Source of the DNA: an uncultured Nitrospiraceae bacterium
GTDB taxonomy: Bacteria; Hydrogenedentota; Hydrogenedentia; Hydrogenedentales; SLHB01
Length of the DNA: 64,000 nt
Assembly (NCBI GenBank): GCA_964632865.1
Contig: CAZWDH010000001.1
Coordinates: 10,106-74,105 of the forward strand
Direction: 5' to 3'
Every line of letters begins with the position of its first letter. The first letter of the stretch is position 1. The notes beneath the pieces were generated by a model. That model ran no database searches, was not told the DNA's origin, and saw only the letters and a list, made by a program, of their open reading frames with translations. Below, one piece after another: positions 17,224 to 51,203 of the stretch. A program made the translations under genes and the position numbers.

Positions 17224-17271
17224 GATGTCTACGCCTCCTCTCGCGCTGTCGCGGTCCAACACGGACCTCGG

Positions 17272-17664
17272 CTACTCGAATTCGTCGCAGTTGAAGACCC
17301 CGCCTTCCGGCTTGGGAAACATGCACGTCTCGCGTTTCTCGCAGGTCATGCACAACCCCGGGAACCACTCGCGGTTGGCGACGGCGAACCGGTCATCGAA
17401 GCGCGGGCCTTCCACGGCATGCGGCGGCTTTACCTCCACCGCCCCTTCGAACTCGTCGCAGGTCAGAACGGGATGATCGGCGGACCTCGGAAATGTGCAG
17501 ACAGGTTCGTTGACGCAGGTCGTGCAGAGCCCGGGATACCACTCCCGATTGGCCGCGAGGGTGCGTTCTGACATCGGTTTGGTGGCTTGCGGTGGTTTCG
17601 GGATGCCACGCCCCTCATTTTCTGTTCTCTCCCTCGTTCCTTCTGACAAGGTCTTGGTTGTCAT
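17272..17664 (-). CDS. Uncharacterised protein with two tandem ~40-aa 4-Cys domains (REW[YF]PGLCxTCxxxxxCxFP...xCDEFE), immediately upstream of and co-oriented with gdhA.
   Basis: Internal repeat ANREWYPGLCTTCVNEPVCTFPRS..VLTCDEFE / ANREWFPGLCMTCEKRETCMFPKP..VFNCDEFE. AGGAGG RBS before the ATG at 17664. Confidence 0.6.
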   Translation of the reverse strand: MTTKTLSEGTRERTENEGRGIPKPPQATKPMSERTLAANREWYPGLCTTCVNEPVCTFPRSADHPVLTCDEFEGAVEVKPPHAVEGPRFDDRFAVANREWFPGLCMTCEKRETCMFPKPEGGVFNCDEFE

Positions 17665-17736
17665 GGTACACCTCCTCATGTTGGAGCCCTATTCTCGGCC
17701 GCGACCACTCGATTCGTCGCGACTCCGAAGGACGTA

Positions 17737-17931: not shown

Positions 17932-19302
17932 TCATTCTGGGTCTTCCGATGTGCTCGCTTCGCTGGAGAATCCGAAACGCTTCAGGCTTTCGCGCAGCGT
18001 CTTTCGGTCGATACCCAAAATCTGCGCCGCCTGCGTTTTGTTCCCCTTCACGCTGGCGAGTACGGCGCGAATGTGGCTCGCGTCCACCTCGGCCAGCGAC
18101 TTATTGACCGCTCCGCCGAGCGGAACGGCGAAGCGCATGAGCGAGGGCAAATCGGCGGCGTCAATCTCCTCAACGTCGGTCATCACGACCAATCGCTGAA
18201 GGACGTTCTCCAGTTCGCGGATATTGCCCGGCCAGTGGTATTCACGGATGCACTGCCAAGCGCGATCCGAGAGTCGCGGCACCGGCTTGTCCGCGTCACG
18301 GGCGAACCTGGCGATGAAGTAGCCCACCAGCGGGATAATGTCGTTCCCACGGTCGCGCAGCGGTGGGAGCTCGATCGTGATGACGTTCAGCCGAAAGTAC
18401 AGGTCGTCCCGGAAGGCCTTCCGCCGGACTAGGGCGGCGAGGTCCTTGTTGGTGGCAGCGAGGACACGCACATCAACGGCGCGCGGCTTGGTAGCGCCGA
18501 CCAATTGCACTTGGTTGTCTTCCAGGACTCGGAGCAATTTGGACTGCATGGCCGGCGTGAGTTCCCCGACCTCATCGAGAAAAATTGACCCTTGATCGGC
18601 GGCGATGAAGAAGCCGGCACGTGTGGTGATGGCGCCGGTGAAAGAGCCTTTCACATGCCCGAACAACTCGCTTTCGACAAGCCCCTCGGGGATTCCGCCG
18701 CAGTTGACGGGCACAAAAGGAGCGGAAGCGCGGGGGCTACTGTAGTGTATCGCTCGGGCGACCAGCTCCTTGCCGGTGCCGCTTTCGCCCGTGATCAACA
18801 CGGTGGCAGACGTGGCGGCCGCTTTGGTGATGGCCCGGTATACCCGTTGCATCGCCGCTGACTCGCCGATCAGCCCGAACGGCGTTCCGGCTGCCCTGGC
18901 CTCCGTAGGCTCCGCTGCGCGTCGCTGGTGCGCCTTCTCGAGGGTCCTCTGGACTGCGGAAAGCAGCTCTTGGTCGGTGAACGGCTTCGTCAGGTACTCC
19001 TCCGCGCCCTCCTTCATCGCCGCCACAGCGCTCTCGATGCTTCCATACCCCGTGATCATGATGGTGGCCGTTTCCGGGAAGTTGGCCCGAACGTGGCGAA
19101 TCAGCTCGAGCCCTCCCACCTTGGGCATCTTGAGGTCCGTGATGACCAGATCAATCGACGTTCGTTCCAGAATCGGGACGGCCTCTTCCACGCCTCGCGC
19201 GGTAAGGACGGAATAGCCGGCCTGCGTCAGGTTCCGTTCGAGCACCTGCAACGTGTTCTCGGAATCATCGACTGCCAGAATGTATGCGATCGGTTCAGCC
19301 AT
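17932..19302 (-). CDS. Sigma54-dependent response regulator (NtrC family): REC, AAA+ sigma54-activator and Fis-type HTH domains.
   Basis: ILAVDDSENTLQVL...DLVITDLKMP (REC); GESGTGKELVARAIH, GAFTGA-like ESELFGH (AAA+); AQILGIDRKTLRESLKRFG (HTH). Confidence 0.9.
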   Translation of the reverse strand: MAEPIAYILAVDDSENTLQVLERNLTQAGYSVLTARGVEEAVPILERTSIDLVITDLKMPKVGGLELIRHVRANFPETATIMITGYGSIESAVAAMKEGAEEYLTKPFTDQELLSAVQRTLEKAHQRRAAEPTEARAAGTPFGLIGESAAMQRVYRAITKAAATSATVLITGESGTGKELVARAIHYSSPRASAPFVPVNCGGIPEGLVESELFGHVKGSFTGAITTRAGFFIAADQGSIFLDEVGELTPAMQSKLLRVLEDNQVQLVGATKPRAVDVRVLAATNKDLAALVRRKAFRDDLYFRLNVITIELPPLRDRGNDIIPLVGYFIARFARDADKPVPRLSDRAWQCIREYHWPGNIRELENVLQRLVVMTDVEEIDAADLPSLMRFAVPLGGAVNKSLAEVDASHIRAVLASVKGNKTQAAQILGIDRKTLRESLKRFGFSSEASTSEDPE

Positions 19303-21067
19303 CAGTCGCTTCCCCCTTCTTTCCATTCTCTGGCGGAGTACTCGGCAGCCGCACCTCAAACCGTGTGCCGTTACCAGGTCGCGTATCAAAGTCGATCGTC
19401 CCCCCGTGCGAGGTCACAATCCCGTGAACAACCGAGAGTCCCAACCCCGTTCCCTGCTCTGGCGTCTTCGTGGTGAAAAACGGTTCAAATATATGCGGTT
19501 GAATCTCCGGCGGTATTCCGGTTCCCGTGTCTTCCACAGCGAGGGATACTGAATCAACTGAACCGCGCGTGCGAATGGTCAGGGTTCCACCCTGCGGCAT
19601 CGCTTGAATCGCGTTGACGCAGAAGTTCACGAGGACTTGATGAAGCTGCACGGCGTCCGCGATGAGTTGCGGGCTCGCCGGATCCAGATCGCAAACGACT
19701 CTGACCCCATGCTCGGTGAACCGCGCCGCGAGCAAGGCCAGGCTGTCCGCAACGGTATCGTTGAGCCGCACCCAGGTTTTGGTTGACGGCGATTGCCGCG
19801 CGAACAGCATCAGCTTGCGCACGATCTCGCGGGCGTGCAGCGTCTCCTGAACGATTTTGCCCAAATCCTCGACGACTCGCCCAGGGATGCCCGGGAGCTT
19901 CTGGGCGAGTTGAGCGAAACCAAGGATGCCGCCGAGCGGTTCGTTGATCTCGTGTGCCACCGTGGCGGCCAGGTGACCGATGGTGGCGAGCCGATCGGCC
20001 TGGCGCACCGTCTCGGCCAGCCGCACCTTCTCCATGCGAGCCTCGCATCTCTGAACGAACAGAGCAATCTCGCGGGCGATCGCGGCGATCAAGTGTTCTT
20101 CCTCCCTGAGAAACGCCCCTTCGACAAACTCGGGGCGGTCCTCAATATAGCCGACCTCCACGAAACCCCGCGCCGCCTCGTCAACGACCACAGGTGCTTG
20201 CTGTCGGTATAAGGCCCGGCCCATGTCCCCGGTCGTGAATTCCACTTCGTCGACGCGAATGCGCGCCACGATGGCATCCGGAAACTGCCACGCAGGCGGC
20301 AACAACCGCACGATCTCGCCGAGAACCTCCGAAGCCGGTCCCTCAGCGGACTCAAGAACTTGAGCAATGGCGTACAAGCAAGTGAGCTCCTTCACCCGCT
20401 CCCGAAGCGCGTGCTGCGCGCGCCGATCATCCATCGCCAGACCGAGAGTCTGTGCCAAAGCCTCGTAGAATTCCACGTTCTGCGCGGAGAAGGCATGCTT
20501 CCGTCCGCTAAGCAGAGCAAGTACGCCGGGAATAGACGAGGTCACATCGAAGGGGATGATCGCGAGCGACCGAACCTCAAGATGCACGGGTCCCCGCAGC
20601 AAGGCATCCCCTATTGCAAGGGCCAGTTCGGTCACGACATCGCCGGTCCAAAAGCTCCCGTGCGCGGTGACGCAGCGGGACTTCGGCCCAACGCCGCGGC
20701 TCAACACGTTTCCGATCAATTTATCAAGCCAAGCCGTCGGCTGCGTCCCACGCGCCCCGAGCGCCGCGGTGCCGATGACGGTCGATGACGGTTCGATGCG
20801 CGGCCCATCGTATCGGGGCTCGAAGTGGAACGATTCGTGAGGAACGCGGGCTGCCGACCATTGATATCGTGAGGCACCGTCTTCCAAACCGGCGACCATC
20901 CGCAGCGCGTCGCACCCAGAAAAACCGAGCAGCAACCGCGACACGTCTCGCAGAAACTCGATCCTTCCGGGGCCCCGACTGGCTACATGCAGCACGCGCC
21001 GCGACGCGGCGATGAAGTCAAGCGGCTCAATCCCTTGCGTTGCGAAGGCGTCGCTCGTCGTTTCCAT
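19295..21067 (-). CDS. Sensor histidine kinase with N-terminal GAF-type sensory domains, cognate to the NtrC-type regulator.
   Basis: H-box HEINEPLGGILGF, N/G boxes FEPFFTTK...GTGLGLSVV. RBS AAGGAGGTG before ATG 21067 (METTSDAF...). The stop overlaps the regulator start by 8 nt. Confidence 0.9.
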   Translation of the reverse strand: METTSDAFATQGIEPLDFIAASRRVLHVASRGPGRIEFLRDVSRLLLGFSGCDALRMVAGLEDGASRYQWSAARVPHESFHFEPRYDGPRIEPSSTVIGTAALGARGTQPTAWLDKLIGNVLSRGVGPKSRCVTAHGSFWTGDVVTELALAIGDALLRGPVHLEVRSLAIIPFDVTSSIPGVLALLSGRKHAFSAQNVEFYEALAQTLGLAMDDRRAQHALRERVKELTCLYAIAQVLESAEGPASEVLGEIVRLLPPAWQFPDAIVARIRVDEVEFTTGDMGRALYRQQAPVVVDEAARGFVEVGYIEDRPEFVEGAFLREEEHLIAAIAREIALFVQRCEARMEKVRLAETVRQADRLATIGHLAATVAHEINEPLGGILGFAQLAQKLPGIPGRVVEDLGKIVQETLHAREIVRKLMLFARQSPSTKTWVRLNDTVADSLALLAARFTEHGVRVVCDLDPASPQLIADAVQLHQVLVNFCVNAIQAMPQGGTLTIRTRGSVDSVSLAVEDTGTGIPPEIQPHIFEPFFTTKTPEQGTGLGLSVVHGIVTSHGGTIDFDTRPGNGTRFEVRLPSTPPENGKKGEATDG

Positions 21068-21145
21068 TGCACCTCCTTTAGGGGCGATAGGTATTCTATC
21101 GAGGAAGCTCGAAAGCCGAACCCGGCACCGACCCGCTCGCATCGA
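20978..21145. repeat. Copy A of a ~165-bp repeat: the promoter, RBS and first ~30 codons of the histidine kinase gene.
   Basis: ~93% identical to 24508..24677 by direct comparison of the two stretches. Confidence 0.85.
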
Positions 21146-21267
21146 CGGAGTTCTCAGTCGCACCACGGCTTCTTTGCTCAAATCTGCCATCCGCGTCCGA
21201 TCGCCCGCGTGCACGAAGGGCAGCGGATAGTCGGCCTTGGTCAGGCACTCACCAACAAAGTACGCCG

Positions 21268-21645
21268 TCAGCCGCCGGGTTCACCTGCAAGTGCAAGTTG
21301 CCGGGTCGGCGTTCCCCAGCGAATCTCGTCGCCGAGCCGATACCAGAGCAGCGCCGATCCGAGCGCGCTCACAATTGAGACGCGGGCATCATCGTTCGCC
21401 TGTTCCGCGTAGATGAGCGTCACGATGCGTTGTTTGCCGGACTGCAAGTCGGTCATGCGCAACTTCGAATTCATCGCGATCACGTCTGGCTGGACCTCCT
21501 CCGGCCGTACCGCCTGCGCGCGGTCGAACTCCGGGACCAAGGCGCGCATCGGCTCGAGATCGGGGGCATCAATGATGGCAGCCAACACGAGGCACCCGAC
21601 GCGGTCCATGTCGATGACGGTGACGTCGATTTGTCGTTCATTCAT
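21268..21645 (-). CDS. rnk: Rnk (regulator of nucleoside diphosphate kinase; GreA/GreB C-terminal FKBP-like fold), paralog 1.
   Basis: EFDRAQAVRPEEVQPDVIAMNSKLRMTDLQSG...VSIVSALGSALLWYRLGDEIRW resembles E. coli Rnk. Confidence 0.75.
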   Translation of the reverse strand: MNERQIDVTVIDMDRVGCLVLAAIIDAPDLEPMRALVPEFDRAQAVRPEEVQPDVIAMNSKLRMTDLQSGKQRIVTLIYAEQANDDARVSIVSALGSALLWYRLGDEIRWGTPTRQLALAGEPGG

Positions 21646-21680
21646 TTTGAACTCCTTGTGGCGCGGGCGCCGAGCGCACG

Positions 21681-22628
21681 CTAAGGGTGTTGGTTTCGGC
21701 CTGGATTCCCTCGCGTGCGGGCGCGATGGGCCCCACGCAGCACGGCAGGGGCATTCTCAACCAGCGCTACCGCGACGGGGTGCTTGACGCGACGTTCCAC
21801 ACTGATCGCGTACAGACGCCCGCGCGTCTTGCCCATGCCGCCGATCGCTTGGACGCTTTGGCCGGTGGTGATCTCGTCTGCGACCGCGTCCGGGACCGCA
21901 AAGAATCCCGCCCCGCGGTGGCCGCAGGCATTCAGCAGCGCCAAGTCCTCGAACTCCGCGATGATTCGCGGGCGCACGGCGACCGACTCGAACCACTCGT
22001 TGAGGGCCCGGCGCAGGGACGTGTTCGCGGTCGGCAAGAGGGCGGGGGCGCCATCGAGCGAAGCGGGGAAACCCTTGCGGAGGCGTCGCGCCAGAGCGGG
22101 CACTGCGCAGGCGGTGATGCCGGACTCGCCGAGCAGGTGACTAAACGTGCGTACCTTGATTGACGGATCGGCCGGCGCGTCCGAGAGCACCAGGTCTAGA
22201 TCGTGCATCGCGAGCTGCGGCAGTAGCTGAGACTGTGTCCCCTCCACACAGATCAGGCGAATGGCCTGCGGCAAGCGAAACGCGGCATCCAGCACCTGGG
22301 CGATAACCAGTTTGGGCAGGACGTCGTCCACGCCGAGCCGAAAGCGTACCGAAGTCTCCAACGTGCGACCCTTGGCGACGTCCAGGAATTCCTGGCCCAG
22401 ACCGAAGATCTCGTCCGCGTAGCGGGCGGCGAGCCGGCCGAACTCGGTGGGGACAAGATTGCGGCCGACGCGCTTAAAGAGCTTCTCGCCGAGCGCATCC
22501 TCCAGCTCGCGCAACTGGGCCGAGATCGTCGCGGGCGACAGCAGCAGCTTGCGGCAAGCCGCGGCGATGCTGCCTTCGCGCACCACGGTCCAGAAGTAAA
22601 ACAGATGATGGTAGTTCAGCCAGTCCAC
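21681..22628 (-). CDS. LysR-family transcriptional regulator.
   Basis: N-terminal HTH LNYHHLFYFWTVVREGSIAAACRKLLLSPATISAQLRELEDALG followed by a LysR substrate-binding domain. Confidence 0.9.
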   Translation of the reverse strand: MDWLNYHHLFYFWTVVREGSIAAACRKLLLSPATISAQLRELEDALGEKLFKRVGRNLVPTEFGRLAARYADEIFGLGQEFLDVAKGRTLETSVRFRLGVDDVLPKLVIAQVLDAAFRLPQAIRLICVEGTQSQLLPQLAMHDLDLVLSDAPADPSIKVRTFSHLLGESGITACAVPALARRLRKGFPASLDGAPALLPTANTSLRRALNEWFESVAVRPRIIAEFEDLALLNACGHRGAGFFAVPDAVADEITTGQSVQAIGGMGKTRGRLYAISVERRVKHPVAVALVENAPAVLRGAHRARTRGNPGRNQHP

Positions 22629-23202
22629 ACCGGCAGCTTAGTTCGATCCTGCCTAATGATCAACCTCATTCATCGTATTCAGCGAATTCACTGCTCCCGC
22701 CCCTTGTGTGGTGCACTCCAGCCCCCGTTTCGCCGTTCCTACAGTGGGCGTCCGAATAGGAGCCTGCACGCACGGTCCGCTGGCCGGCAGGACATCTGAC
22801 GTGGTCCTGCGGCTGGAGCCTGATGTCGCCGCGCGATCCCGCGCGACCAACTTAGCACCGGCCCGCCTAACACGGAACCTCGCCGGGCCCGCCACGGACA
22901 AAGCAGGACCATCGCCTTGAATGTGGAACCTTCGCGAAAACCGAACGATTAATGCGATATTATCTGTCTTGCTAATGATGGCGCACCTGCCTATAGATGG
23001 GTAGCGACTGGAACCCGAGCGGTGATCAACCGCTCGGACGGTCGATTCGTTGTCGCTGGCCCGCCAGCGGGCATGCGAGGGCGCCACGGCTAACCCGGGC
23101 GCCGCCTCCCAGCGAAGCCGCGCGGGGGGCGTCGCGGGTGCGCTTGAGAACCGCAACGACAGATGATCGAGACATGGCGAGACTTGCAGAAAGGAGATGA
23201 CA

Positions 23203-23553
23203 ATGCACATCCAGATCACGATGCAGAACATGTTGCTAACCAACGCTCTGCGAGAGTTGGTGCACACGCGTCTGCGATTTGCGCTGGGCCGCTTCGCGCA
23301 TCGCATCGAAGTCGCGGCTGTCAGCTTCGAGGATATGAACGGCCCGCGCGGCGGACGCGACGTGCAGTGCCGCATCAGGCTGCTGCTCCGGCCGCGCGGC
23401 GAGATCAACGTGTCCGCCGTGGCGGTATTCCCGGGCGCAGCCCTCAGTGAAGCCGTGCAGCGCGCGTGCCGCCACGTGCGCTCACGCACGCGTCGCCGCT
23501 GGATGTTGCGTCGGCGCACTCGTGACACGCTCGATGTCGGTTCAGCCGCTTGA
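23203..23553 (+). CDS. hpf: Ribosome hibernation promoting factor / RaiA (sigma54-modulation protein, S30EA family), short form.
   Basis: MHIQITMQNMLLTNALRELV...INVSAVA aligns with E. coli HPF MQLNITGNNVEITEALREFV. AAGGAG RBS lies 6 nt upstream of the ATG at 23203. Confidence 0.72.
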   Translation: MHIQITMQNMLLTNALRELVHTRLRFALGRFAHRIEVAAVSFEDMNGPRGGRDVQCRIRLLLRPRGEINVSAVAVFPGAALSEAVQRACRHVRSRTRRRWMLRRRTRDTLDVGSAA

Positions 23554-23997
23554 TGCTAACGCTCAAACGGAGGTGAGACATGATGGTCCCGGGCGCGGAG
23601 AATCGCTGCGTCCAGAGACCCGGCATCGCCGGGCCGGATGAAGCGCGGCGCGGTGCTGGCCTATTTCACGACAGGAGGCGCCAGCCTGTTTTCTCACCCG
23701 TTGGAGCGATCCACAAGCGGAACTGCTTAATCGTTGTTACGTGCCAATTGCACGTTGAGCCCCAACATCGCGCTCGCGTCACTGGCTGGCTAGTGTGGTG
23801 TCCCTCGCGGTCCTTTACGACGGTCGCTCTTGGCGACAGAGATCGCCATCGGCTCCGTTCAGAAGCGCGGGATGCGGTAGCAGTCAAGTTGTTTCTGGGA
23901 CACAACAGTGCGACCAGGGCTCGGGCACGCCGGCCGGCGCCCGCACCGTCCGCGACTGTCAACGCGGCCAAGTAGGCCCGTAGATTGGAATATCGAC

Positions 23998-24414
23998 ATG
24001 GCAAGACGAACCATCTACATCACGCAGCAGGACGCGAGCCGCCTTCGGGAATGGCTCCGCACGTCGGGGCGTCGGCACGAGAAGGACCGCGCGCATTTGA
24101 ACGTGCTACGGCGCGAGCTGGAACGCGCGCATGTGATTGAGCCGGACGAAGTTCCCCCGGACGTGGTCACCATGCACTCGCGCGTGCGCATCGAGGACCC
24201 GCAGACGAAGCAGAAGCTGCTCTGCACGCTGGTGTTTCCCGAGGACGCCCTCGCGGCCGACGAGCGGATCTCGGTGCTTGCCCCGCTTGGAGCCGCGATC
24301 CTGGGCTGCCGCGCCGGCGACGTGATTCGGTTCGAAGTTCCCGTTGGTCAGCGGACGGTGCGCATCTTAGAGGTGCTTTACCAACCCGAAGCGGCCGGAC
24401 ACTTCCACCTGTAG
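23998..24414 (+). CDS. rnk: Rnk, paralog 2, in inverted orientation relative to paralog 1.
   Basis: DVVTMHSRVRIEDPQ...ISVLAPLGAAILGCRAGDVIRFEVPVGQ...LEVLYQPEAAGHFHL is a near-perfect match to the E. coli Rnk pattern (DVVTMNSRV...LEYQPEAAGDYLL). Confidence 0.85.
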   Translation: MARRTIYITQQDASRLREWLRTSGRRHEKDRAHLNVLRRELERAHVIEPDEVPPDVVTMHSRVRIEDPQTKQKLLCTLVFPEDALAADERISVLAPLGAAILGCRAGDVIRFEVPVGQRTVRILEVLYQPEAAGHFHL

Positions 24415-24470
24415 GTGTCCACCGACGCGAAGCGAGCGGCCACTCGAATTTTGGCGGCACGTAACAATGT

Positions 24471-24599
24471 TCATCGTCGCCACCCACGAGCCGCATCTCC
24501 GAAGCCTCTACTGGCTAGATGCAGCACGCACCGTGACGCGGCGATGAAGTCAAGCGGCTCAATCCCTTGCGTTGCGAAAGCGTCGCTCGTCGTTTCCAT
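24471..24599 (-). pseudogene. Orphan 5' fragment of the histidine kinase gene (RBS plus 42 codons, METTSDAFATQGIEPLDFIAASRCVLHLASRG...), part of repeat copy B.
   Basis: Same RBS and start as the HK gene; it diverges after ~30 codons and stops at 24471. Confidence 0.6.
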
Positions 24600-24677
24600 C
24601 GCACCTCCTTTAGGGGCTATAGGCATTCTATCAAGGAAGTTCGAAAGCCGAACCCAGCACCGACCCGCACGCATCGT
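24508..24677. repeat. Copy B of the histidine kinase 5' repeat.
   Basis: Directly aligned with 20978..21145. Confidence 0.85.
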
Positions 24678-24702
24678 CCAAGTCCTCCGTCGCACGGCGG
24701 GC

Positions 24703-24806
24703 GTCCTCGGCGCCGCTCGACGGTCGAAGGGCTCGGCTATTTCCAATATCATCCGACCATGCACGACCTTTCGCTGGTTGCGACGATCGCGGCGGCATTC
24801 AGCGGG
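24703..24806. repeat. Copy of the kefB-like gene's 5' region (upstream ~50 bp plus first 16 codons), fused to the protease gene.
   Basis: tcgaagggctcggctatttccaatatcatccgaccATGcacgacctttcgctggttgcgacgatcgcggcggcattcagcggg aligns with 30462..30562, which reads ...ggttcggctatttcggatatcatccaaccATGcacgacctatcgttgattgcgacgatcgcggcggcattcagcgggg. Confidence 0.85.
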
Positions 24807-25943
24807 CTAAAAGCCGCGAGTCGATGCTTGAAAATCGACATGGTCCGTCACTCCAGCTTGATCGTAAAGGTCATGATTTGCTTCCTGACCGTAGCGGCAG
24901 TATTTGGATCAGCGTACCTCGGCGGTAGGGTAGCAACAAGATACGCGATGAAGCGCGACGACGCTCTCCGTCGCCAGCAAAGCGAAACAATGTCGGCCGA
25001 GTTATCGGCGATCCGCGATCAACTTCGTCGGCAAGTCGAAGACTTCCGACGTGACCAAGCCGGATACACTTCGCGCGCCGAGTTGGACACGCTTCGGACT
25101 GATCTCGCGCGGCGTGCGGAAGTCGTAGATACATTGGTAGCCCGCAACAGCTCCCTGCGTCTCGTACTCGACGAGTACAGCCGCGGCGTGTGCCTTGTTT
25201 ACGGCGCGTATACTTTTCGACTCCCGACGGATGGTGAACAAGCGCCCGTCCTGGGACCGGACGGCAGCCCGCTTGAACTCGAATATTTCGGCTCTGGTTT
25301 TCTCGCTTCTTCCGAAGGTGCAGTACTTACCAACCGTCACGTGGCCGAACCGTGGTGGAACAACGCCGCTGTCGCCGGCCACGTGGAACAGGGTCTGATC
25401 CCATTGTTCGTCCATCTCACGGTCTATTTCCCTGGGCATCCAGCGATCTCAAGCGACTCATCGAAAATGCACGTAAGCACCGACGGCGTTGACCTCGCCG
25501 TGCTGCGTGTCCCGCCCGATGCCGTAAAAGGCATCCCGGTGTTGCCGCTTTTTTCCGGCGACGCTCGCGAGCTGCGCGGCAGCCGTATAATTCTTCTTGG
25601 CTATCCCACCGGCATTAACGCTGTGCTCGCCCGCACGGAGCCTGACGTGATGAGCGAAATCCTCAGCGGCGTTCGTGATACGGCCAGTCTACTTGCCGCT
25701 CTGGCAGATCGGTCACTGATCGTCCCGGTGGTAACGCAAGGAGCGCTGAATGAAGTCCGTGACCGTCGACTGGTCTACGACGCAGAGACAACCTCGGGTG
25801 GTTCCGGCGGACCGGTTTTTGGCCCCGACGGGAAAGTCATTGGGGTCAATTTTGCCATTACTCGCGATTTCGATGGCTCAAATTTTGGCGTCCCGATAGG
25901 ATTCGCTTCGCGCTTGTTCGATGGACGAGAAGATGCGCCGTAG
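24759..25943 (+). CDS. Trypsin-like (S1/DegP-like) serine peptidase with an N-terminal TM/coiled-coil region. Its first 16 codons and upstream region are a copy of the kefB-like gene's 5' end.
   Basis: His: VLTNRHVAEPW; Asp: DLAVLRV; Ser: TTSGGSGGPVFGPDGKVIGVNFA. N-terminal MHDLSLVATIAAAFSG versus KefB MHDLSLIATIAAAFSG. Confidence 0.78.
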   Translation: MHDLSLVATIAAAFSGLKAASRCLKIDMVRHSSLIVKVMICFLTVAAVFGSAYLGGRVATRYAMKRDDALRRQQSETMSAELSAIRDQLRRQVEDFRRDQAGYTSRAELDTLRTDLARRAEVVDTLVARNSSLRLVLDEYSRGVCLVYGAYTFRLPTDGEQAPVLGPDGSPLELEYFGSGFLASSEGAVLTNRHVAEPWWNNAAVAGHVEQGLIPLFVHLTVYFPGHPAISSDSSKMHVSTDGVDLAVLRVPPDAVKGIPVLPLFSGDARELRGSRIILLGYPTGINAVLARTEPDVMSEILSGVRDTASLLAALADRSLIVPVVTQGALNEVRDRRLVYDAETTSGGSGGPVFGPDGKVIGVNFAITRDFDGSNFGVPIGFASRLFDGREDAP

Positions 25944-25968
25944 ATACAAAGAGGAGAGTGAGATCGTA

Positions 25969-27234
25969 ATGAGCCGGCTTGAAGTGTCCCCAGCTAGTTT
26001 CGGAAGGCGACGCCGTGTCTTGATGATCTTCACCGGTGTGGCCACTCTGGTTTTGACGACTCATTGCTCACGACGCGAAGCGCCACCGCCGCCTCCGCCC
26101 GCGGCGGTCACTGTAGCACGGCCAGTGCAGTGGGAAGTCGTCGAGTGGGACGAGTACACCGGGTATCTCGACGCCGTCGAGTTCGTGGAAGTGCGGGCGC
26201 GAGTCAGCGGCCTTGTCATGTCGACGCCTTTTCAGGCAGGAAAGATCGTCAAGCAAGGCGACCTTCTTGTAGAGATCGATGTGCGGCCGTTTCAGGCCGA
26301 CCTTAACAGTCGGATCGCCGAGGAGGCGCGGGCCGCCGCGCAGGTCAGGCTGGCGGAAATTGAGCTCAGACGGATCCAGGAGATGCCTCCGGAGGCGTCT
26401 GTGCCCATCGAGGTACAAAGAAGCGAGGCGGCCCTCAGCGAGGCGAAGGCTGTACTCGCCGGCGCGCAAGCCGCAGTCGAGGCCGCCCGCTTGCTCGTCG
26501 AGTGGTGCCGCGTCACGGCTCCCATTGCCGGCCGCATTAGCCGTCGATATGTTGACCCGGGAAACCTCATCACCGGCGGCAGCGGGACCGGGACGTTGCT
26601 CACCACAATCGCTTCCACCGATCCTATCCATTGCTACATCGACGCTGACGAGCGCGCCGTGCTCAAGTACCAGCGATTAGCGCGCGAAAAGAAACGAGTC
26701 AGCGCCCGCGATGCCGAGATTCCGTTCCTCATGCAACTCGCCGACGAAAAAACCTTTTCTCGCCAGGGGGTGGTGGATTTCGTTGATAACCGCCTTGACC
26801 CGATGACCGGTACAATGCGAGGGCGCGGCGTACTCGCTAATCCGGGCGGCTATTTGATGGCCGGTTTTTTTGCGCGAGTGCGCATAGCAGGAAGCGGCGC
26901 CTACGTCGCCACGCTCGTACCCGATGCGGCCATCACGATCGATCAGGACCAGAAGGTCCTGTACTTGGTCGGAGAAAACAACGTCGTCCAGGTGCGGCCC
27001 GTCAAACTGGGTGCGCTCTTCGGCGAGTTTCGATCAATCGAAGCAGGGATCGGGTTGAGCGATCGCGTGATTATCAACGGTTTGATGCAAGCGCGTCCCG
27101 GCGCCACGGTTGCGCCTGAGGAAGCGTCCATCCCGCGTGAGGCGCTGCCGCTTCTACCGAATGAACTGCTTCCGCCCGACGCGCAGACGCAGCCGGCGGA
27201 CCCGCCTGAACCGAACAGCGAGGACCAGCCATGA
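25969..27234 (+). CDS. RND efflux membrane-fusion (periplasmic adaptor) protein.
   Basis: Lipoyl/hairpin/beta-barrel pattern (GDLLVEID...FQADLNSRIAE...RLAEIELRRIQE...WCRVTAPIAGRIS). GAGGAG RBS before ATG 25969. The stop overlaps the next start (ATGA). Confidence 0.85.
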   Translation: MSRLEVSPASFGRRRRVLMIFTGVATLVLTTHCSRREAPPPPPPAAVTVARPVQWEVVEWDEYTGYLDAVEFVEVRARVSGLVMSTPFQAGKIVKQGDLLVEIDVRPFQADLNSRIAEEARAAAQVRLAEIELRRIQEMPPEASVPIEVQRSEAALSEAKAVLAGAQAAVEAARLLVEWCRVTAPIAGRISRRYVDPGNLITGGSGTGTLLTTIASTDPIHCYIDADERAVLKYQRLAREKKRVSARDAEIPFLMQLADEKTFSRQGVVDFVDNRLDPMTGTMRGRGVLANPGGYLMAGFFARVRIAGSGAYVATLVPDAAITIDQDQKVLYLVGENNVVQVRPVKLGALFGEFRSIEAGIGLSDRVIINGLMQARPGATVAPEEASIPREALPLLPNELLPPDAQTQPADPPEPNSEDQP

Positions 27235-30200
27235 ACTTCGCTCGATTCTTCATCGACCGCCCCGTTTTCGCGTCGGTACTGTCGATCGTCTTTGTCATCG
27301 TCGGCACGCTGGCGATCCTCACGCTGCCCATCGCGCAGTATCCGGAGATCGCTCCACCCACGGTCGTTGTGGCCGCGAACTACCCCGGCGCCAACGCCAA
27401 AGTCGTCGCCGACACCGTGGCCACACCCATCGAGCAGCAGGTCAACGGCGTGGAGAATATGCTTTACATGTCCAGCCAGTCCACAAACGCCGGCAGGATG
27501 ACGCTGACGGTGACATTTAGACTCGGAACGAATCTGGACATCGCGCAGGTTCAGGTTCAGAACCGCGTCGCCATCGCCGAGCCGCAACTCCCCGAAGACG
27601 TCCGCCGCCTGGGTGTTACGGTCAGAAAGTCTTCGCCCGATCTTACGCTGGCCGTGGCTCTGTACTCTCCCGATAGGAGTCGCGACACGCTCTACGTGAG
27701 CAACTACGCCACACTCCAGATTCGCGACGAACTGGCGCGACTTCCGGGCGTAGGCGACATCACCATCTTCGGGGCCCGCGATTATTCCATGCGCCTATGG
27801 CTCGATCCGGAGAAGCTCGCGTCACGGCGGCTGACGGCCGGAGATGTGATCAACGCCGTTCGAGAGCAAAACCTTCAAGTCGCCGCCGGCGTGGTCGGCG
27901 GCCCTCCACTTCCGCCAAAGGCCACGAAATTTCAGTACACCGTTAGCGCTCTCGGTCGCCTGACGGATCCGCAGCAGTTCGCCAACATCGTGGTGAAGAC
28001 GGGCGAAGATGGTCGAATCACTCGCGTGCGGGACGTGGCCCGCGTGGAGCTGGGTGCTGCCGATTATGACACCGATTTCGCATTCGACGGTCAGCCCGCG
28101 GTAGGGATAGGGATTTTCCAGCTTCCAGGAACAAACTCCATCGAGACCGCGAACGCAGTCTATGCCAAAATGACGGAACTCAAGGGCAGTTTCCCAGCGG
28201 GCCTGGACTACGCCATTCCGTATGACACGACGATATTCGTGCGCAGCAGCATCCGCGACGTGATATGGACGTTGTTTGAGGCCATCGGCTTGGTGGTCAT
28301 TGTCATCCTCGTTTTCCTTCAGAGTTGGCGGGCATCGCTGATCGTGCTTCTTGCTATTCCCGTGTCACTGGTCGGCACCTTCGGGGTCATGGCGGCCTTC
28401 GGATTCTCTATCAACAATCTCTCGCTTTTCGGTATTGTGCTGGCCGTCGGCATCGTCGTTGACGACGCCATCGTAGTAGTCGAGAACATCGAGCGCTGGA
28501 TCGAAGAGGGCTATGCGCCGCGCGAGGCCGCTTACAAGGCAATGGAAGAGGTCACGCCGGCCGTCATCGCCATCGCGTTCGGGCTGTCAGCCGTGTTCAT
28601 TCCCGTAGCGTTCATCGGCGGAATCACCGGCCAGTTCTACCGTCAGTTCGCCCTGACGATCTCGTTCTCTACGCTGATTTCCGCGTTTAACTCGCTGACC
28701 CTCAGCCCGGCGCTTGCGGCGCTGTTGCTGCGCCCCCGACATGGCCCCCAGGATTGGTTTAGTAGGACACTGAACGCAATTCTGGGCTGGTTCTTCCGCC
28801 TCTTCAACCGTGGACTGTCGGCGGCAACCTTTGGATATGCGGCGTCGGTGCAACGGGTCGTTCGCGTCAGCGGCCTGGCGCTCTTGGTATACGGGGGACT
28901 ACTCGGCCTGACGTACCTTGGCTTTAGGGCCGTGCCAACCGGGTTCATCCCGGCGCAGGACGCAGGTTACTTGCTAGTCAGTTTACAGATGCCCGATGCC
29001 GCCACCATCGATCGCACAGCGTCGGTGATGGCGCGGCTGGCGGACTTCGCCCGCAAGGTTCCCGGCGTAGAGCATTCATTCGCCGTCTCCGGCTTCTCCA
29101 TGCTCAACCGCGTCAACCAGACCAATGCAGGAACAATGTTCCTGAACCTTAAGGATTTCGACAGCCGCGCACGCGATCCGGGTCAAACCAGCGACGCCAT
29201 CCAAGCGCGACTGATGGGTGAATACCGCCGCGTGCAGGAGGGGTCCGCTCTCGTGTTGGAACCACCCCCGGTAAGGGGAGTAGGAAACGCCGGCGGCTTC
29301 AAGATGCAAGTGCAGGACCGTACCGGTCGCTCGTCCTCCCAGCAACTACAGGCTGCCGCCGATCGGCTCACTGCGGAGGCAGCTGCGAATCCACAGCTGA
29401 ACTCACTGCTGTCCACGTTTCGCGCCAACGTCCCGCAGCTCTTCGCCAACGTCGATCGAACCAAGGTGAAAATGCAGGACGTGCCGGTTACGGGTGTGTT
29501 CGAGGCTCTTCAGGTTTACCTCGGGAGTCTCTATATCAATGACTTTAATTTTCTCGGCCGGACATACCGTGTGACGGCACAGGCCGACGCGCCGTTCCGT
29601 GCCACCGCCGCCGAAGTCACGCGGCTCAAAACGCGAAACCGGGCTGGCGAGATGGTTCCGCTGGGTGCCGTGCTCGACATTGAAGATATCGCCGGACCGG
29701 ATCGAATCAACCGTTACAACCTGTACCAATCCGCCGACATCATTGGGAACACAGCGCCCGGCGTGAGTAGCGGACAGGGCATCGCCATCATGGAAGACCT
29801 CGCGCGGGAGACTCTGCCGCTGGGTTACGGGTTCGAATGGACCGAGCTCTCTTATCAGGAAAAGCTGGCTGGAAGCACGGCGTTCCTGATTTTCCCTTTG
29901 TGCGTGCTGTTCGTGTGGCTGGTCCACTCCGCGGAATACGAGAGCTTCGCTCTGTCCACGGCGATTATCCTAATCGTCCCGATGTGCCTTCTGAGCGGAA
30001 TCGCTGGCGTGTGGCTGCGCGGGATGGACAACAACATCTTCACCCAGATCGGCTTCGTGGTGCTGGCGGGTCTGAGCGCCAAGAACGCCGTGCTGATCGT
30101 GGAGTTCGCCAAGCAACAGGAGGAGAAGGGCCTGAGCACCTTCGACGCGGTGGTCGAGGCCGCTCGGCTGCGTTTCCGGCCGATCCTGATGACCAGCTTC

Positions 30201-30395
30201 GCGTTCATTCTCGGCGTCGTACCGCTGGTTCTGGCTCGGGGCGCGGGGGCTGAGATGCGACAAGCACTGGGAACCGTCGTCTTTTTCGGAATGTTGGGCG
30301 TGACGTTATTTGGCCTGTTCCTCACGCCGGTGTTCTACTACGTCATTCGCCGGTTCACGGCGCATAGGTATCCGGTGGGTTCAGAACGGAGTTGA
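27231..30395 (+). CDS. RND multidrug efflux permease (AcrB/HAE1 family).
   Basis: [70 protein letters not shown]; 1054 aa with 12 TM topology. Confidence 0.95.
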   Translation: [1054 protein letters not shown]

Positions 30396-30461
30396 TCGAA
30401 CGATGCATGGCAGGGAAACCCAGACGCTTGTTTCGAGCGAGTTTGATGCTTGTTCTTGATA

Positions 30462-30562
30462 AATGAGACCGCTCGACACTCGAAGGGTTCGGCTATTTCG
30501 GATATCATCCAACCATGCACGACCTATCGTTGATTGCGACGATCGCGGCGGCATTCAGCGGG
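30462..30562. repeat. Original copy of the kefB 5' region that is repeated at 24703..24806.
   Basis: See the paired feature at 24703..24806. Confidence 0.85.
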
Positions 30563-33148
30563 GCCTGGCTCCTCGGGTTGGTCACCCAGCGGCTTGGGCT
30601 CTCGCCGATTGTGGGCTATCTGCTGGCCGGCGTGGTCATCGGACCCTACACGCCGGGGTTTGTGGGCGACCTTCACATTGCCCAGCAGTTGGCCGAGGTC
30701 GGCGCCATCCTGCTGATGTTCGGCGTCGGTCTGCATTTTCACCTGAAGGACCTGCTGGCTGTCAAGGGCGTGGCCGTACCGGGAGCCATCGGCCAGAGCC
30801 TGTTTACAACCCTACTCGCCGTGGCCGTTTTCGCCGCGTTCGACGTTCCTTTGAAAACTGGCGCCGTGATCGGCATGGCGATGTCCGTCGCCAGCACCGT
30901 CGTGCTTATCCGCGTGTTGATGGATGCCGACGTGCTGGCATCACCCCAAGGCCACATCGCCGTTGGGTGGCTGATCGTGGAGGACATCTTCACGGTTATC
31001 CTTTTGGTGCTGATTCCCGTGCTTGGTGAAGTACCTAACGATGAGGAACTTGCCAAGGCAGCGCACGTTTTGGCCTTCTTGCCCACGCTAGGTTTGGCTT
31101 TCTTGAAGTTGGGTGCCTTGGTTGCCATCGTCTTGCTGGCCGGTCCACGCGTCATTCCCTGGGTCCTGGTCCGAGTGGCACGACTTCGTTCGCGAGAATT
31201 GTTCACGCTGACTGTTCTGGTGTTCTCGATCGCGATCGCGGCAGGTTCGTACTTTTTCTTCGGCGCCTCGATGGCCCTTGGCGCGTTCCTCGCAGGCACG
31301 GTGGTGGCTCAGTCGCCGGTCAGCCACCAAGCCGCCGCCGATGCACTTCCACTGCGGGACGCATTCGCCGTCCTCTTCTTCGTCGCGGTGGGGATGCTCT
31401 TTGACCCGGGGTTCCTGGTGCAGCAACCGCTCATGGTGGCCGCTGCTCTCGGAATCATCCTGCTGGCCAAGCCCCTTACCGCGCTCGCCATTGTTGCCCT
31501 GCTCGGGCATTCGTCGAGAACCGCATTCACTGTCGCCATCGGACTGGCGCAGATCGGCGAGTTCTCGTTCATCCTCTCTGACCTTGCACGTCGGCACGGG
31601 TTGATGCCGGACGCTGGTCACAATGTACTTGTGGCCTCCGCAATCATCTCGATTACCCTGAACCCGTTGCTGTTTCGGATGCTTCCGAAGATGGAGTCGT
31701 GGCTCCAGGGTCGACCCTTTCTGTGGGAGCTTCTGAACGGTCGGGGCGAGCGGCGCATCAGAGCCACGAACTTAGTAGTCGCCCAAACTCTGGCGCGTCC
31801 TGAGAGCAATAATAGTCGCCTAGCCATCATCGTCGGCTATGGGCCCGTAGGTCGTTCCGTAGATCGGCTTCTGCAAGATGCGAATGTGGCCACAGTCGTG
31901 GTCGACCTGAACATGGACACGGTCTCCTCCTTGAATTCGGAAGGAAGGACGGCGATTTTCGGAGACGCTTCGCGAGAGGGCATACTCGAACAGGCGGGGG
32001 CCAAGCGGGCTTCACACCTGATTCTCACGCTCCCCCATTCGTCGCAACGAGCAGCCATACTCACTGCGGCGCGGAGTTTGAATCCCAGCGTGCGCGTCTT
32101 GGTGCGGGCACGGTACCTTCGGGAGCGGGAAGACCTCGAACAGGCCGGGGCCACCGCCGCGATCTTTGAGGAAGCTGAAGCAGCGGTGGCGCTTGCACGA
32201 TTGGTTCTCACCGATACCGGGGTGCACCGTGAGGCGGCGGACAAGAAAATCAACGAGTTGCGTCTCCACCTCATCATGGAGAACATTTCCAACATTCGCA
32301 CTCAGCGCGTGCGAAGCGTGATGGTGCCGTGGTCCCGTGTCCGTTGGCTGCCCACAACGGCAGACCGGGACGCGGTGTTCGCGCAGGCTTCCCAGGAGCG
32401 TTTCTCACGTTGGCCGGTTGTCGAACCGCAGACAGGACGAGTAGTTGGCTATCTACTCACGAAGGATCTGATCGCGTATACGGCGGATTCAGATTGGTCG
32501 GGCCTCGTACGCCCGCTCAAGGCGATTCAACAGGACGACACGATCGAGTCCGCCTTGACGAGTATGCAGAGCGAGGAGGCCTCGGTGTATTTGGTCGAGG
32601 ACGGCCAACGACCTGTTGGGCTCATCACTTTGGAGGACATCCTCGAACAGGTGGTCGGTCAAATCGAGGACGAATACCCGCACGAAGCGCCTGTCTCACT
32701 GCCCGACGCCTTGGCCAGAGGTCGAATTGTGCTTCAACTTGCTGCGACCTCCCGCGACGGGATCCTTCGTGAGCTCGCCGCAACGATTCCAGTAAGGACC
32801 CTCCCAGCGAACGTGAGTGTCAAGCAAATCGCCAGCCTTGCCATCGCACGGGAAGAGGAACTCTCTACGAACCTCGGCAACGGGGTCGCGGTCCCTCACG
32901 TTCGTTGCCCAAACCTCGCCGCGCCGATTGTCGTGTTCGGACGAAGCCCTTCGGGGGTTGCTTTCTCGCCTGGGTCGGAATTGGTTCGTCTGGTTTTCCT
33001 GATCGTCACGCCAGAAGAACAGCCCGAAACGCAACTCGCTCTGCTTGGCCAAGTGGCGCGGGTCGGCGGCGAGCAATCGACTCGCGAATCATTGATGCTG
33101 GCTACGTCGGACCAAGAGATTCAGAGCGTATTCCGTGGGCCTCCCTAA
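30515..33148 (+). CDS. CPA2-family cation:proton antiporter (KefB-like) fused to RCK/TrkA-N, a CBS pair and a PTS-EIIA type-2 (PtsN-like) regulatory domain.
   Basis: TM domain 1-400. GYGPVGRSVDRLL Rossmann (TrkA-N) ~aa 440-560. CBS pair ~aa 600-720. C-terminal EIIA-2-like domain (VAVPHVRCPNLAAPIVVFGRS). Confidence 0.82.
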   Translation: MHDLSLIATIAAAFSGAWLLGLVTQRLGLSPIVGYLLAGVVIGPYTPGFVGDLHIAQQLAEVGAILLMFGVGLHFHLKDLLAVKGVAVPGAIGQSLFTTLLAVAVFAAFDVPLKTGAVIGMAMSVASTVVLIRVLMDADVLASPQGHIAVGWLIVEDIFTVILLVLIPVLGEVPNDEELAKAAHVLAFLPTLGLAFLKLGALVAIVLLAGPRVIPWVLVRVARLRSRELFTLTVLVFSIAIAAGSYFFFGASMALGAFLAGTVVAQSPVSHQAAADALPLRDAFAVLFFVAVGMLFDPGFLVQQPLMVAAALGIILLAKPLTALAIVALLGHSSRTAFTVAIGLAQIGEFSFILSDLARRHGLMPDAGHNVLVASAIISITLNPLLFRMLPKMESWLQGRPFLWELLNGRGERRIRATNLVVAQTLARPESNNSRLAIIVGYGPVGRSVDRLLQDANVATVVVDLNMDTVSSLNSEGRTAIFGDASREGILEQAGAKRASHLILTLPHSSQRAAILTAARSLNPSVRVLVRARYLREREDLEQAGATAAIFEEAEAAVALARLVLTDTGVHREAADKKINELRLHLIMENISNIRTQRVRSVMVPWSRVRWLPTTADRDAVFAQASQERFSRWPVVEPQTGRVVGYLLTKDLIAYTADSDWSGLVRPLKAIQQDDTIESALTSMQSEEASVYLVEDGQRPVGLITLEDILEQVVGQIEDEYPHEAPVSLPDALARGRIVLQLAATSRDGILRELAATIPVRTLPANVSVKQIASLAIAREEELSTNLGNGVAVPHVRCPNLAAPIVVFGRSPSGVAFSPGSELVRLVFLIVTPEEQPETQLALLGQVARVGGEQSTRESLMLATSDQEIQSVFRGPP

Positions 33149-45434: not shown

Positions 45435-45860
45435 TCACGGCCCAGTCAGCCGCGCGCCCAGTTCTTGAATCTCACGTCCACCGATCACACCGTCATTCTC
45501 CCAATCCGCCCGGCCACAGGCCGGTTCCAATTCCCCGCCGGACAAGCCGAAGCAGTTCTGAAACGCAGCCACGTCGGTAAGGTCCTTGTCCCCGTCGTCG
45601 TCGAAGTCGGCGAAGAGGTCGGGAAACGCGTAGATACGCCGGTCGAAGTCTCCGGCGACAATTCCATCAGCCTCGACGAAATCCTCTGACTGAATGAACG
45701 CCGCCGGATCGAGAGGAGAGAAACCATCGCGGAAGTGGACTTCCAGCCGCCCGCCGAGCGTGGTCTGTCCGGTCACATGCAGCACGTCGAACTCGCCGGG
45801 GTTCTGTCCGGCATATTCCATGATCAAGGCGCCGCCGGGGAGTATCTCCAAATCTCCGTC
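45435..45860. repeat. Conserved 3' block of the paralog family (copy 1 of 3; the others are ~48335-48760 and ~51204-51630).
   Basis: Long stretches are near-identical at nucleotide level, e.g. ccggttccaattc(c/t)ccgccggaca(a/g)gccgaagcagttctgaaacgc.gccacgtcgg, between 45515 and 51290. Confidence 0.8.
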
Positions 45861-48287: not shown

Positions 48288-48334
48288 AAACCTCTCCCCT
48301 CTCTCGGGCGTGTCGCCTTTATGAACACGGCGGC

Positions 48335-51157: not shown

Positions 51158-51203
51158 ACATTTCTCCTCGCTCCCGGACATGCCGCGCTATCCATTCGAC
51201 GGC

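Follow-up and report, generated by a model that had tools for sequence, protein, structure and literature searches.

A 309-bp module made of copied histidine kinase and antiporter 5' ends, likely a divergent intergenic region stranded between two insertions

Between the operon of a sensor histidine kinase (HK) and the gene of a CPA2 cation:proton antiporter lies a 309-bp module (24498-24806; coordinates refer to the window, the whole stretch of 64,000 nucleotides analysed here) that consists of copies of the 5' ends and upstream regions of both genes, separated by a short spacer. We consider it likely that this module is the old divergent HK/antiporter intergenic region, stranded by two target-duplicating insertions, one on either side of it. 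The order along the window is A-X-A'-spacer-B'-Y-B (Table 1), where A/A' and B'/B are direct, sharply bounded repeat pairs that flank inserts X and Y, respectively, and within the module the start codons of the HK copy and the antiporter copy stand 159 nt apart. Repeat B' supplies the start codon and the first 16 residues of a truncated protease encoded by Y. Taken as a whole, the locus is no new system but the well-preserved scar of recombination of known kinds.

Comparison of the window with itself, a check proposed in an earlier sequence-only reading of this DNA, returned two repeat pairs, on which blastn and a separate repeat search agree. Searching 20800-30800 against the window, blastn aligned A with A' over 198 nt (89.9% identity, ungapped, offset 3532, E = 1.2e-72) and B' with B over 94 nt (90.4% identity, ungapped, offset 5756, E = 7.5e-31). 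Both repeats are far beyond chance, their longest identical runs measuring 44 nt (A/A') and 29 nt (B/B'), and neither search found a third copy of A or B in the 64-kb window. The sequence-only reading had judged A to be ~93% identical to its copy within 20978-21145, and recomputation over that interval gives 12 mismatches in 168 nt, or 92.9%. Its description of A was right as to the ribosome-binding site (AGGAGG) and the minus strand, but A contains 34 HK codons rather than ~30; the B copy does comprise upstream DNA and 16 antiporter codons, but starts at 24713 in the blastn alignment, not at 24703; and the spacer, given as 25 bp of unique sequence, measures 17 nt. Noncoding divergence is alike in both pairs, at 12 of 96 sites in A (12.5%) and 6 of 46 in B (13%), which fits one age or one donor for the two.

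Table 1. Positions and content of the repeats, inserts and genes of the locus, in window coordinates.
Feature	Position	Strand	Content
Glutamate dehydrogenase	15841-17262		HK operon
Small ORF	17272-17679		HK operon
Sigma-54-dependent response regulator (NtrC-like)	17932-19389		HK operon
Sensor histidine kinase HK, 590 aa	19295-21067	-	GAF/HisKA/HATPase (Pfam)
Repeat A	20966-21163	-	HK codons 1-34 and 96 nt upstream of ATG 21067; AGGAGG ribosome-binding site
Insert X, 3334 nt	21164-24497		Between A and A'
Rnk-like gene	21268-21645	-	In X
NhaR-like LysR gene	21681-22628	-	In X; NCBIfam NF008284, 235.8 bits against a cut-off of 219
HPF/S30AE-like gene	23197-23553	+	In X
Second Rnk-like gene	23998-24414	+	In X
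Orphan HK stub, 42 codons	24471-24599	-	34 HK-derived codons, then 8 unrelated codons and a stop
Repeat A'	24498-24695	-	Module copy of HK 5' end and upstream region
Spacer	24696-24712		17 nt; single copy in window; homologous to L059 HK-upstream DNA
25-nt block CGGCGCCGCTCGACGGTCGAAGGGC	24708-24732		Imperfect palindrome; 25/25 identical in L059
Repeat B'	24713-24806	+	46 nt upstream and antiporter codons 1-16
Chimeric protease gene, 394 aa	24759-25943	+	16 antiporter codons in frame with 5'-truncated protease
Insert Y, 5662 nt	24807-30468	+	Protease body, MFP adaptor, RND pump, 73-nt tail (Pfam, NCBIfam)
MFP adaptor, MexE-like	25921-27234	+	In Y
AcrB-type RND pump	27231-30395	+	In Y
Terminator-like hairpin	30434-30452		In 73-nt tail of Y (terminator scan)
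Repeat B	30469-30562	+	Antiporter's working upstream region and codons 1-16 (ATG 30515)
CPA2 cation:proton antiporter ("kefB-like"), 877 aa	30515-33148	+	Na_H_Exchanger, TrkA_N, CBS, PTS_EIIA_2 (EIIA-Ntr) (Pfam)

On the kinase side, HK is the first gene of a four-gene operon whose order is conserved, being common to the relatives L059, L060, L062 and L064, with kinases that are 69-78% identical; the start codon assigned to HK is supported by the length of its homologues, which is likewise 590 aa. A search of the genome contigs with the HK protein matched only distant kinase cores and no HK orthologue. Within A, a -10-like hexamer, TAGAAT, occupies 21093-21098 (24625-24630 in A') and is present also in L059 and L060, which is consistent with its being a promoter element. 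Inside the module, translation and codon-by-codon comparison bear out the orphan 42-codon HK stub recognised earlier, the relevant part of which is 91% identical to HK residues 1-34 (tblastn). The stub is a pseudogene fragment, and annotation of the contig should flag it as such.

The ancestral continuity of the module follows from comparison with L059 (GCA_041748515.1, a MAG contig), whose HK operon is 80.3% identical in nucleotide sequence over 5.3 kb. The match of L059 to the HK-side copy stops at 21166, that is, at the A|X junction, and X is absent upstream of HK in L059. Its match to the module (L059 4873-5093 against window 24732-24511; 222 nt, 87.8% identity, blastn) extends 34 nt further than the HK-side match, through the spacer (17 nt) and into B' for 20 nt. 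Since L059 is collinear with A', the spacer and 20 nt of B', the module is ancestral HK-upstream sequence without a new join, and X is an insertion. By the same collinearity, B opens with 20 nt copied from HK-upstream DNA, which a former antiporter position 159 nt from HK would lead one to expect. That the two genes were formerly adjacent is suggested by the module itself together with this 20-nt overlap, and the survival of an ancestral HK/kefB intergenic region between two flanking insertions, one of two origins offered by the sequence-only reading, thus gains support from the L059 collinearity and from the end of the match at A|X. Beyond its first 20 nt, B' has no significant homology to L059 (in local alignment, 309 of 500 shuffles score as well); a collinear CATCCAACC motif occurs in the distal upstream DNA of L059, where the alignment is no better than that of shuffles, and the upstream neighbour in L059 is a histidyl-tRNA synthetase gene, not an antiporter. 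The 25-nt palindromic block that L059 preserves in full is intact in the module only, occurring once in the window with up to 3 mismatches allowed, and is a candidate operator.

The second origin offered, promoter capture, would make the module itself the copy, a 309-bp patch templated on the HK/antiporter region and pasted into an X-FHA-protease-Y locus that already existed, where it took the place of the protease 5' end. Templated patch insertions at breaks are known, and the protease, which lacks a 5' end and promoter of its own, now depends on B'. The X-Y block would nevertheless need to sit exactly between A and B, without the 17-nt spacer that only the module contains; and as L059 shows A, the spacer and 20 nt of B to have been contiguous ancestrally, the patch must predate a second precise block insertion. 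More events are needed here than for two insertions into an existing intergenic region, and we consider it quite improbable that the module arose as a patch.

On the antiporter side, identity to the homologues does not exceed 75%, and these derive from MAGs of Phycisphaerae and Planctomycetia, which makes the window planctomycete. The N-terminus MHDLSLIATIAAAF is conserved throughout the family, from which it follows that B is native to the antiporter gene and that B' duplicates this gene's 5' end, now in the service of the protease. The antiporter genes of relatives have a TPR gene upstream, and no HK. A synteny check of five HK relatives found no antiporter upstream of the HK operon and a different upstream neighbour in each. 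The closest relatives, 75-79% identical in protein sequence, have other neighbours, and none of the window's adjacencies is shared by relatives of the kinase, the antiporter, the protease or the pump.

The protease encoded at the start of Y is a membrane-anchored enzyme of the S1C (trypsin-like) type (PF13365, E = 3.5e-17). Its homologues are ~490-500 aa long (451-540 aa in 104 of the 120 best homologues listed) and are laid out as FHA domain, linker, transmembrane helix and protease domain; the FHA domain (PF00498) is found above the Pfam cut-off at residues 24-88 of P0122, P0123, P0127 and P0131. Homology of the window protein to this family begins at an invariant Ser-Gly, residues 15-16 of the window protein and residue ~122 of the family, and in place of the ~121 N-terminal residues that make up FHA domain and linker the window protein has MHDLSLVATIAAAF, the N-terminal sequence conserved in the antiporter family. 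The FHA domain is absent from the window's protease, and no remnant of it was found anywhere in the window DNA. Protein alignment therefore agrees with the sequence-only reading that the kefB copy gives the protease its ATG and first 16 codons; the 5' truncation of the protease, the loss of the FHA domain and the fusion at microhomology had gone unseen in that reading.

The fusion junction (24799-24806, plus strand) falls inside a microhomology of 8 nt, TCAGCGGG. TTC AGC GGG in the antiporter corresponds to GTC AGC GGG at the homologous Ser-Gly of the protease relatives L055 and L056, the parental protease sequence at the junction being that deduced from relatives 64-70% identical. Microhomology was assessed at this B'|Y joint, the other three junctions having no parental sequence with which to compare. 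After the fusion the remaining 377 codons (a 1.1-kb frame) are intact, and the TNRHV, D309 and GGSGGP columns, which hold the His, Asp and Ser motifs, are invariant in an alignment of the protease with 7 homologues; the intact frame and the invariant motif columns suggest that the chimera is expressed. The same 394-aa product appears in the public annotation of the source contig (P0121), and should be described there as a fusion. Repeat B' probably also supplies the promoter of the protease-MFP-RND operon. At the loci of protease relatives the genes stand alone and encode a full FHA domain, never lying beside an MFP-RND pair; in a metagenome scan, all 80 RND loci had the MFP-RND pair and none had the protease upstream or the antiporter downstream.

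Insert X, whose genes were assigned by Pfam, NCBIfam and PHROGs searches, contains in addition ~570 nt without a convincing gene. An open reading frame of 291 aa at 22653-23528 (minus strand) was rejected as a gene, having no match to a family or a structure and an Arg/Ser/Cys-rich composition of the kind that a wrong frame gives. Direct repeats flank each of the two blocks, and in relatives the antiporter gene adjoins integrated phage- or plasmid-like DNA, so that X, Y or both might be thought mobile, as genomic islands or transposons whose attachment sites or target-site duplications are the repeats. Such elements are hard to reconcile with what X and Y contain: Pfam, NCBIfam and PHROGs searches of both found no integrase, transposase, relaxase or recombinase; there are no terminal inverted repeats at their ends beyond shuffled controls, and the window lacks a tRNA; the repeats, at 94-198 nt and 90% identity, are not short identical cores; and Y begins in the middle of a gene. 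A 16-nt direct near-match at the ends of Y is equalled or exceeded in score by 14 of 500 shuffles and is not significant after four tests. We find it scarcely credible that X or Y is a mobile element.

The window is part of an 87-kb metagenome-assembled contig, a source that counts against our best explanation. Were the contig chimeric or mis-joined, the arrangement would be an artefact of assembly, and the exact products of the HK and antiporter genes are recorded a single time. The copies differ, however, at 10% of sites, whereas repeats that an assembler collapses or mis-joins are as a rule identical; a mis-join would be expected inside shared k-mers, but each of the four junctions coincides with an end of homology; and the B'|Y joint is in frame, at microhomology, and leads into the intact 377-codon frame. 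An artefact is, on these grounds, very improbable.

Outgroup comparison also bears on the age and polarity of the copies. Over the 198 nt, A is 85.3% and A' 85.8% identical to L059, compared with 89.9% between A and A', and the private changes number 10 in A, 9 in A' and 18 in L059. With L060 as a further outgroup, four-taxon site patterns favour the grouping A+A' by 4 to 1 to 1, and a rough clock puts the A/A' split at ~70% of the depth of the divergence from L059. The changes are unevenly spread: 6 of the 10 private to A fall in the 20 nt adjoining X, where A' has none (Fisher p = 0.011), and of the derived changes B carries 5 (2 synonymous, 3 within 20 nt of Y) and B' carries 1. Counting noncoding positions, the working outer copies have acquired 11 derived changes and the module 4, an excess that simple in-place duplication with relaxed constraint on the module does not predict. 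This unevenness can be read either as descent of the outer copies from a diverged donor or as constraint on the module, the counts being too small to decide.

If the outer copies came from such a donor, DNA of a lineage ~10% diverged, carrying X-HK and Y-antiporter, would have been integrated by homeologous single crossover or by homology-facilitated illegitimate recombination (HFIR). Donor alleles would then be found in A together with part of HK, and in B together with part of the antiporter gene; the module would be native to the recipient. This scenario differs from our best explanation, of which it is a variant, in the source of the DNA and the age of the event. The clustering of A-private changes beside X and the 5-to-1 excess in B are both in keeping with it, although the counts are small and, past the distal cluster, the private changes of A and A' are interleaved, with no single switch. 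The conserved 25-nt block, identical to L059 throughout in the module, points the same way, and the HK upstream flank differs in every relative, so that donors with other neighbours are plausible; no donor-like arrangement (HK-X or RND-antiporter) was found, though, in any collection searched, and GC is uniform across the region, with values of 0.58-0.67 throughout and no compositional step. An experimental precedent (PMC3240628) and an evolutionary model (PMC5361080) also exist. We hold a foreign origin of the outer copies to be possible, and offer it tentatively.

Under the preferred explanation, in which both insertions entered a native intergenic region, the original module would have had HK codons 1-34 on one side and antiporter codons 1-16 on the other. 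The 3.3-kb X with its regulatory genes would have entered with a 198-nt target duplication, and the 5.7-kb Y, made up of a protease broken at ~codon 122 and the MFP-RND pair, with one of 94 nt. Thanks to these duplications, the outer edges would have retained complete 5' ends and proximal upstream regions for both kinase and antiporter, with the older copies left in the middle between X and Y. We infer that the mechanism was most likely one of two, which the data do not separate: single-crossover (Campbell-type) integration of circularised DNA bearing a short homologous segment, or replicative template switching in which copying resumed on the original template at a position behind the one it had left. 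By either route, at least one joint would have been made at microhomology. Two other schemes were rejected: a single tandem duplication of the whole A-to-B segment predicts a B-A' joint and not the observed order, and a single circle bearing the module in full, integrated by the Campbell route, predicts a Y-X order, not A-X-A'-spacer-B'-Y-B.

The stranded promoter region may still work and control the protease-efflux operon. Promoter activity is presumed for either copy; a sigma-70 consensus scan of 20.8-30.8 kb found no promoter, a search of the window with Rfam at the gathering threshold found no RNA family, and the RNA fold of the module has a z-score of 0.25 and no structure. It is conceivable, if doubtful, that the rearrangement rewired regulation, such that the 25-nt block and the duplicated antiporter promoter control the FHA-less protease and the RND pump as they formerly did the antiporter and the HK operon. 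If so, the noncoding DNA of the module, which is at least as conserved as that of the outer copies, would reflect selection. The NhaR-like regulator from X may act on both B copies.

Whatever its regulation, the locus is a clean natural case of operons gaining new neighbours without loss of function: duplication of a 5' end and promoter allows insertion into a divergent promoter region without disabling the flanking genes. From the leftover copy, a gene truncated on arrival gained its start codon and probably its promoter as well; the product is a chimera without the regulatory FHA domain. Planctomycetota have little genetics, and scars of this sort are among the few records of the recombination routes that operate in them.

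Several known systems share features with the locus. The closest to the chimeric product are the FHA-domain membrane-anchored S1C proteases of Planctomycetota, which are 57-70% identical to the window protein from linker to C-terminus. Like them, the window protease keeps the transmembrane helix, the coiled-coil region and the His/Asp/Ser motifs; unlike them, it has no FHA domain, carrying instead 16 residues of the first antiporter transmembrane helix, and it is linked to an MFP-RND pair, whereas the genes of these relatives stand alone. As regards the rearrangement, the template-switching model known as FoSTeS/MMBIR, reportedly due to Hastings et al. 2009, shares with the window the insertion of distant sequence, the duplication of the departure site and junctions at microhomology. 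Several switches are possible in a single FoSTeS/MMBIR event, and this would account for A/A' and B/B' being equally diverged; no second copy of X or Y that could be the template is visible, however, in the 64-kb window. Replicative template switching has been described for stress-induced rearrangements in E. coli (PMC3161906).

In E. coli, circles with truncated homology that integrated by single crossover left the insert between duplications of 109-950 bp, and this outcome was far commoner there than true HFIR, whose joints use 3-10 bp of microhomology (PMC3240628). The window resembles such Campbell-type integration in that precisely the homologous segment stands duplicated, in direct orientation, on the two sides of each insert and that no site-specific recombinase is needed; the experimental range includes the 198-nt repeat, and the 94-nt repeat lies just below it. 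Unlike in those experiments, the copies in the window are 10% diverged, the event is ancient or homeologous, the circle and its origin are hypothetical, and two such events flank one 309-bp region. HFIR itself, reported in transformation and conjugation by de Vries & Wackernagel 2002, Prudhomme et al. 2002 and Meier & Wackernagel 2003, as these are related in PMC5361080 and PMC3240628, combines a homologous anchor with an illegitimate joint at 3-10 bp of microhomology, and traps foreign genes beside a conserved gene; the window is similar, with a microhomology of 8 nt. HFIR usually deletes recipient DNA, whereas the window shows duplication.

Orphan stubs and displaced modules also mark T6SS effector-immunity and Rhs loci, for which an evolutionary model exists (PMC5361080). 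As in that model, successive insertions anchored on a conserved gene end would have displaced the older copy, and orphaned fragments record the history. At the T6SS and Rhs loci it is 3' ends that are displaced, in toxin loci under diversifying selection, whereas in the window the 5' ends and promoters of housekeeping-type genes were duplicated, on both sides of a divergent promoter.

Relatives retain the operon headed by the GAF sensor histidine kinase (HK) gene, which continues with a sigma-54 regulator, a 130-aa ORF and glutamate dehydrogenase. The neighbour upstream of the HK gene is a different one on each of five contigs of relatives (L059, L060, L062, L063 and L064): HisRS, an NADH dehydrogenase subunit, AlaRS, a DUF772 transposase with Rrf2, and hypothetical genes. 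Rearrangement breakpoints recur on the promoter side of the HK operon. In L050 and L052, the contigs with the two closest relatives of the antiporter, integrated mobile DNA directly follows the antiporter gene, and the 3' flank of this gene looks like a hotspot for insertions in this clade. At insert Y, between the stranded module and the working antiporter gene, a direct near-repeat lies just within each end; 14 of 500 shuffles attain its score, which is not significant with four tests considered.

Within the stranded module, where copies of the HK and antiporter 5' ends adjoin, lies an imperfect palindrome, CGGCGCCGCTCGACGGTCGAAGGGC, that matches its L059 counterpart at 25 of 25 positions, though the HK operon is only 80% identical between the two organisms. 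Its intact form is confined to the module within the window: the working HK copy is without it, and the antiporter copy carries three changes in its own part. The palindrome is a candidate operator.

Coordinates of features in the window and in contigs of relatives
Feature	Position (strand)	Details
Imperfect palindrome	24708-24732; L059 4873-4897	25 nt
Near-repeat GCGAG(T)T[C/T]GATGCTTG	24816-24831; 30436-30451	16 nt, direct
Phage-like DNA after antiporter	L050 12807-22522	GpA terminase nuclease, ParB-methylase, primase-polymerase
Plasmid- or ICE-like DNA after antiporter	L052 12737-22658	RepL, ParA, TrwC relaxase
Rnk/GreA-C-terminal-like paralogues	21268-21645 (-); 23998-24414 (+)	~40% protein identity
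LysR gene	21681-22628 (-)	NhaR-like
LysR to HPF-like gene	22629-23196	~570 nt
291-aa ORF	22653-23528 (-)	
CPA2 antiporter gene	30515-33148 (+)	
P-type ATPase gene	34523-36955 (-)	copper-type
Internal duplication in ATPase gene	36561-36752	111 nt, copies 70% identical
Three tandem paralogues	45435-54158 (-)	~950-984 aa each; period ~2.9 kb; 72-84% identity, patchy
Periodic repeat in third paralogue	53205-53915	129-138 nt
749-aa ORF	60117-62366 (+)	
Tandem repeat in 749-aa ORF	60636-61641	78-nt unit, ~12.5 copies; higher-order periods 156, 234, 312 nt

Repeats also occur elsewhere in the window. The duplication in the P-type ATPase gene lies within the HMBD repeats, the metal-binding region at the N-terminus. 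Among the three tandem paralogues, the third matches DUF3466, and a Pfam match is absent from the other two. The 749-aa ORF has the Peptidase_S74 'chaperone of endosialidase' as its terminal domain, and its product is therefore a Gly/Thr-rich fibre-like repeat protein.

Insert X, between the HK gene and the stranded module, has one of two Rnk/GreA-C-terminal-like paralogues at each end, in opposed orientations. The stretch from its LysR gene to its HPF-like gene contains no convincing gene and no Rfam match; the long 291-aa ORF across it looks like a wrong-frame artefact. The LysR gene itself scores above the NCBIfam equivalog cut-off for NhaR, the E. coli activator of the Na+/H+ antiporter gene nhaA, and lies 8 kb from the CPA2 antiporter gene, which suggests a functional link between insert X and the antiporter promoter.
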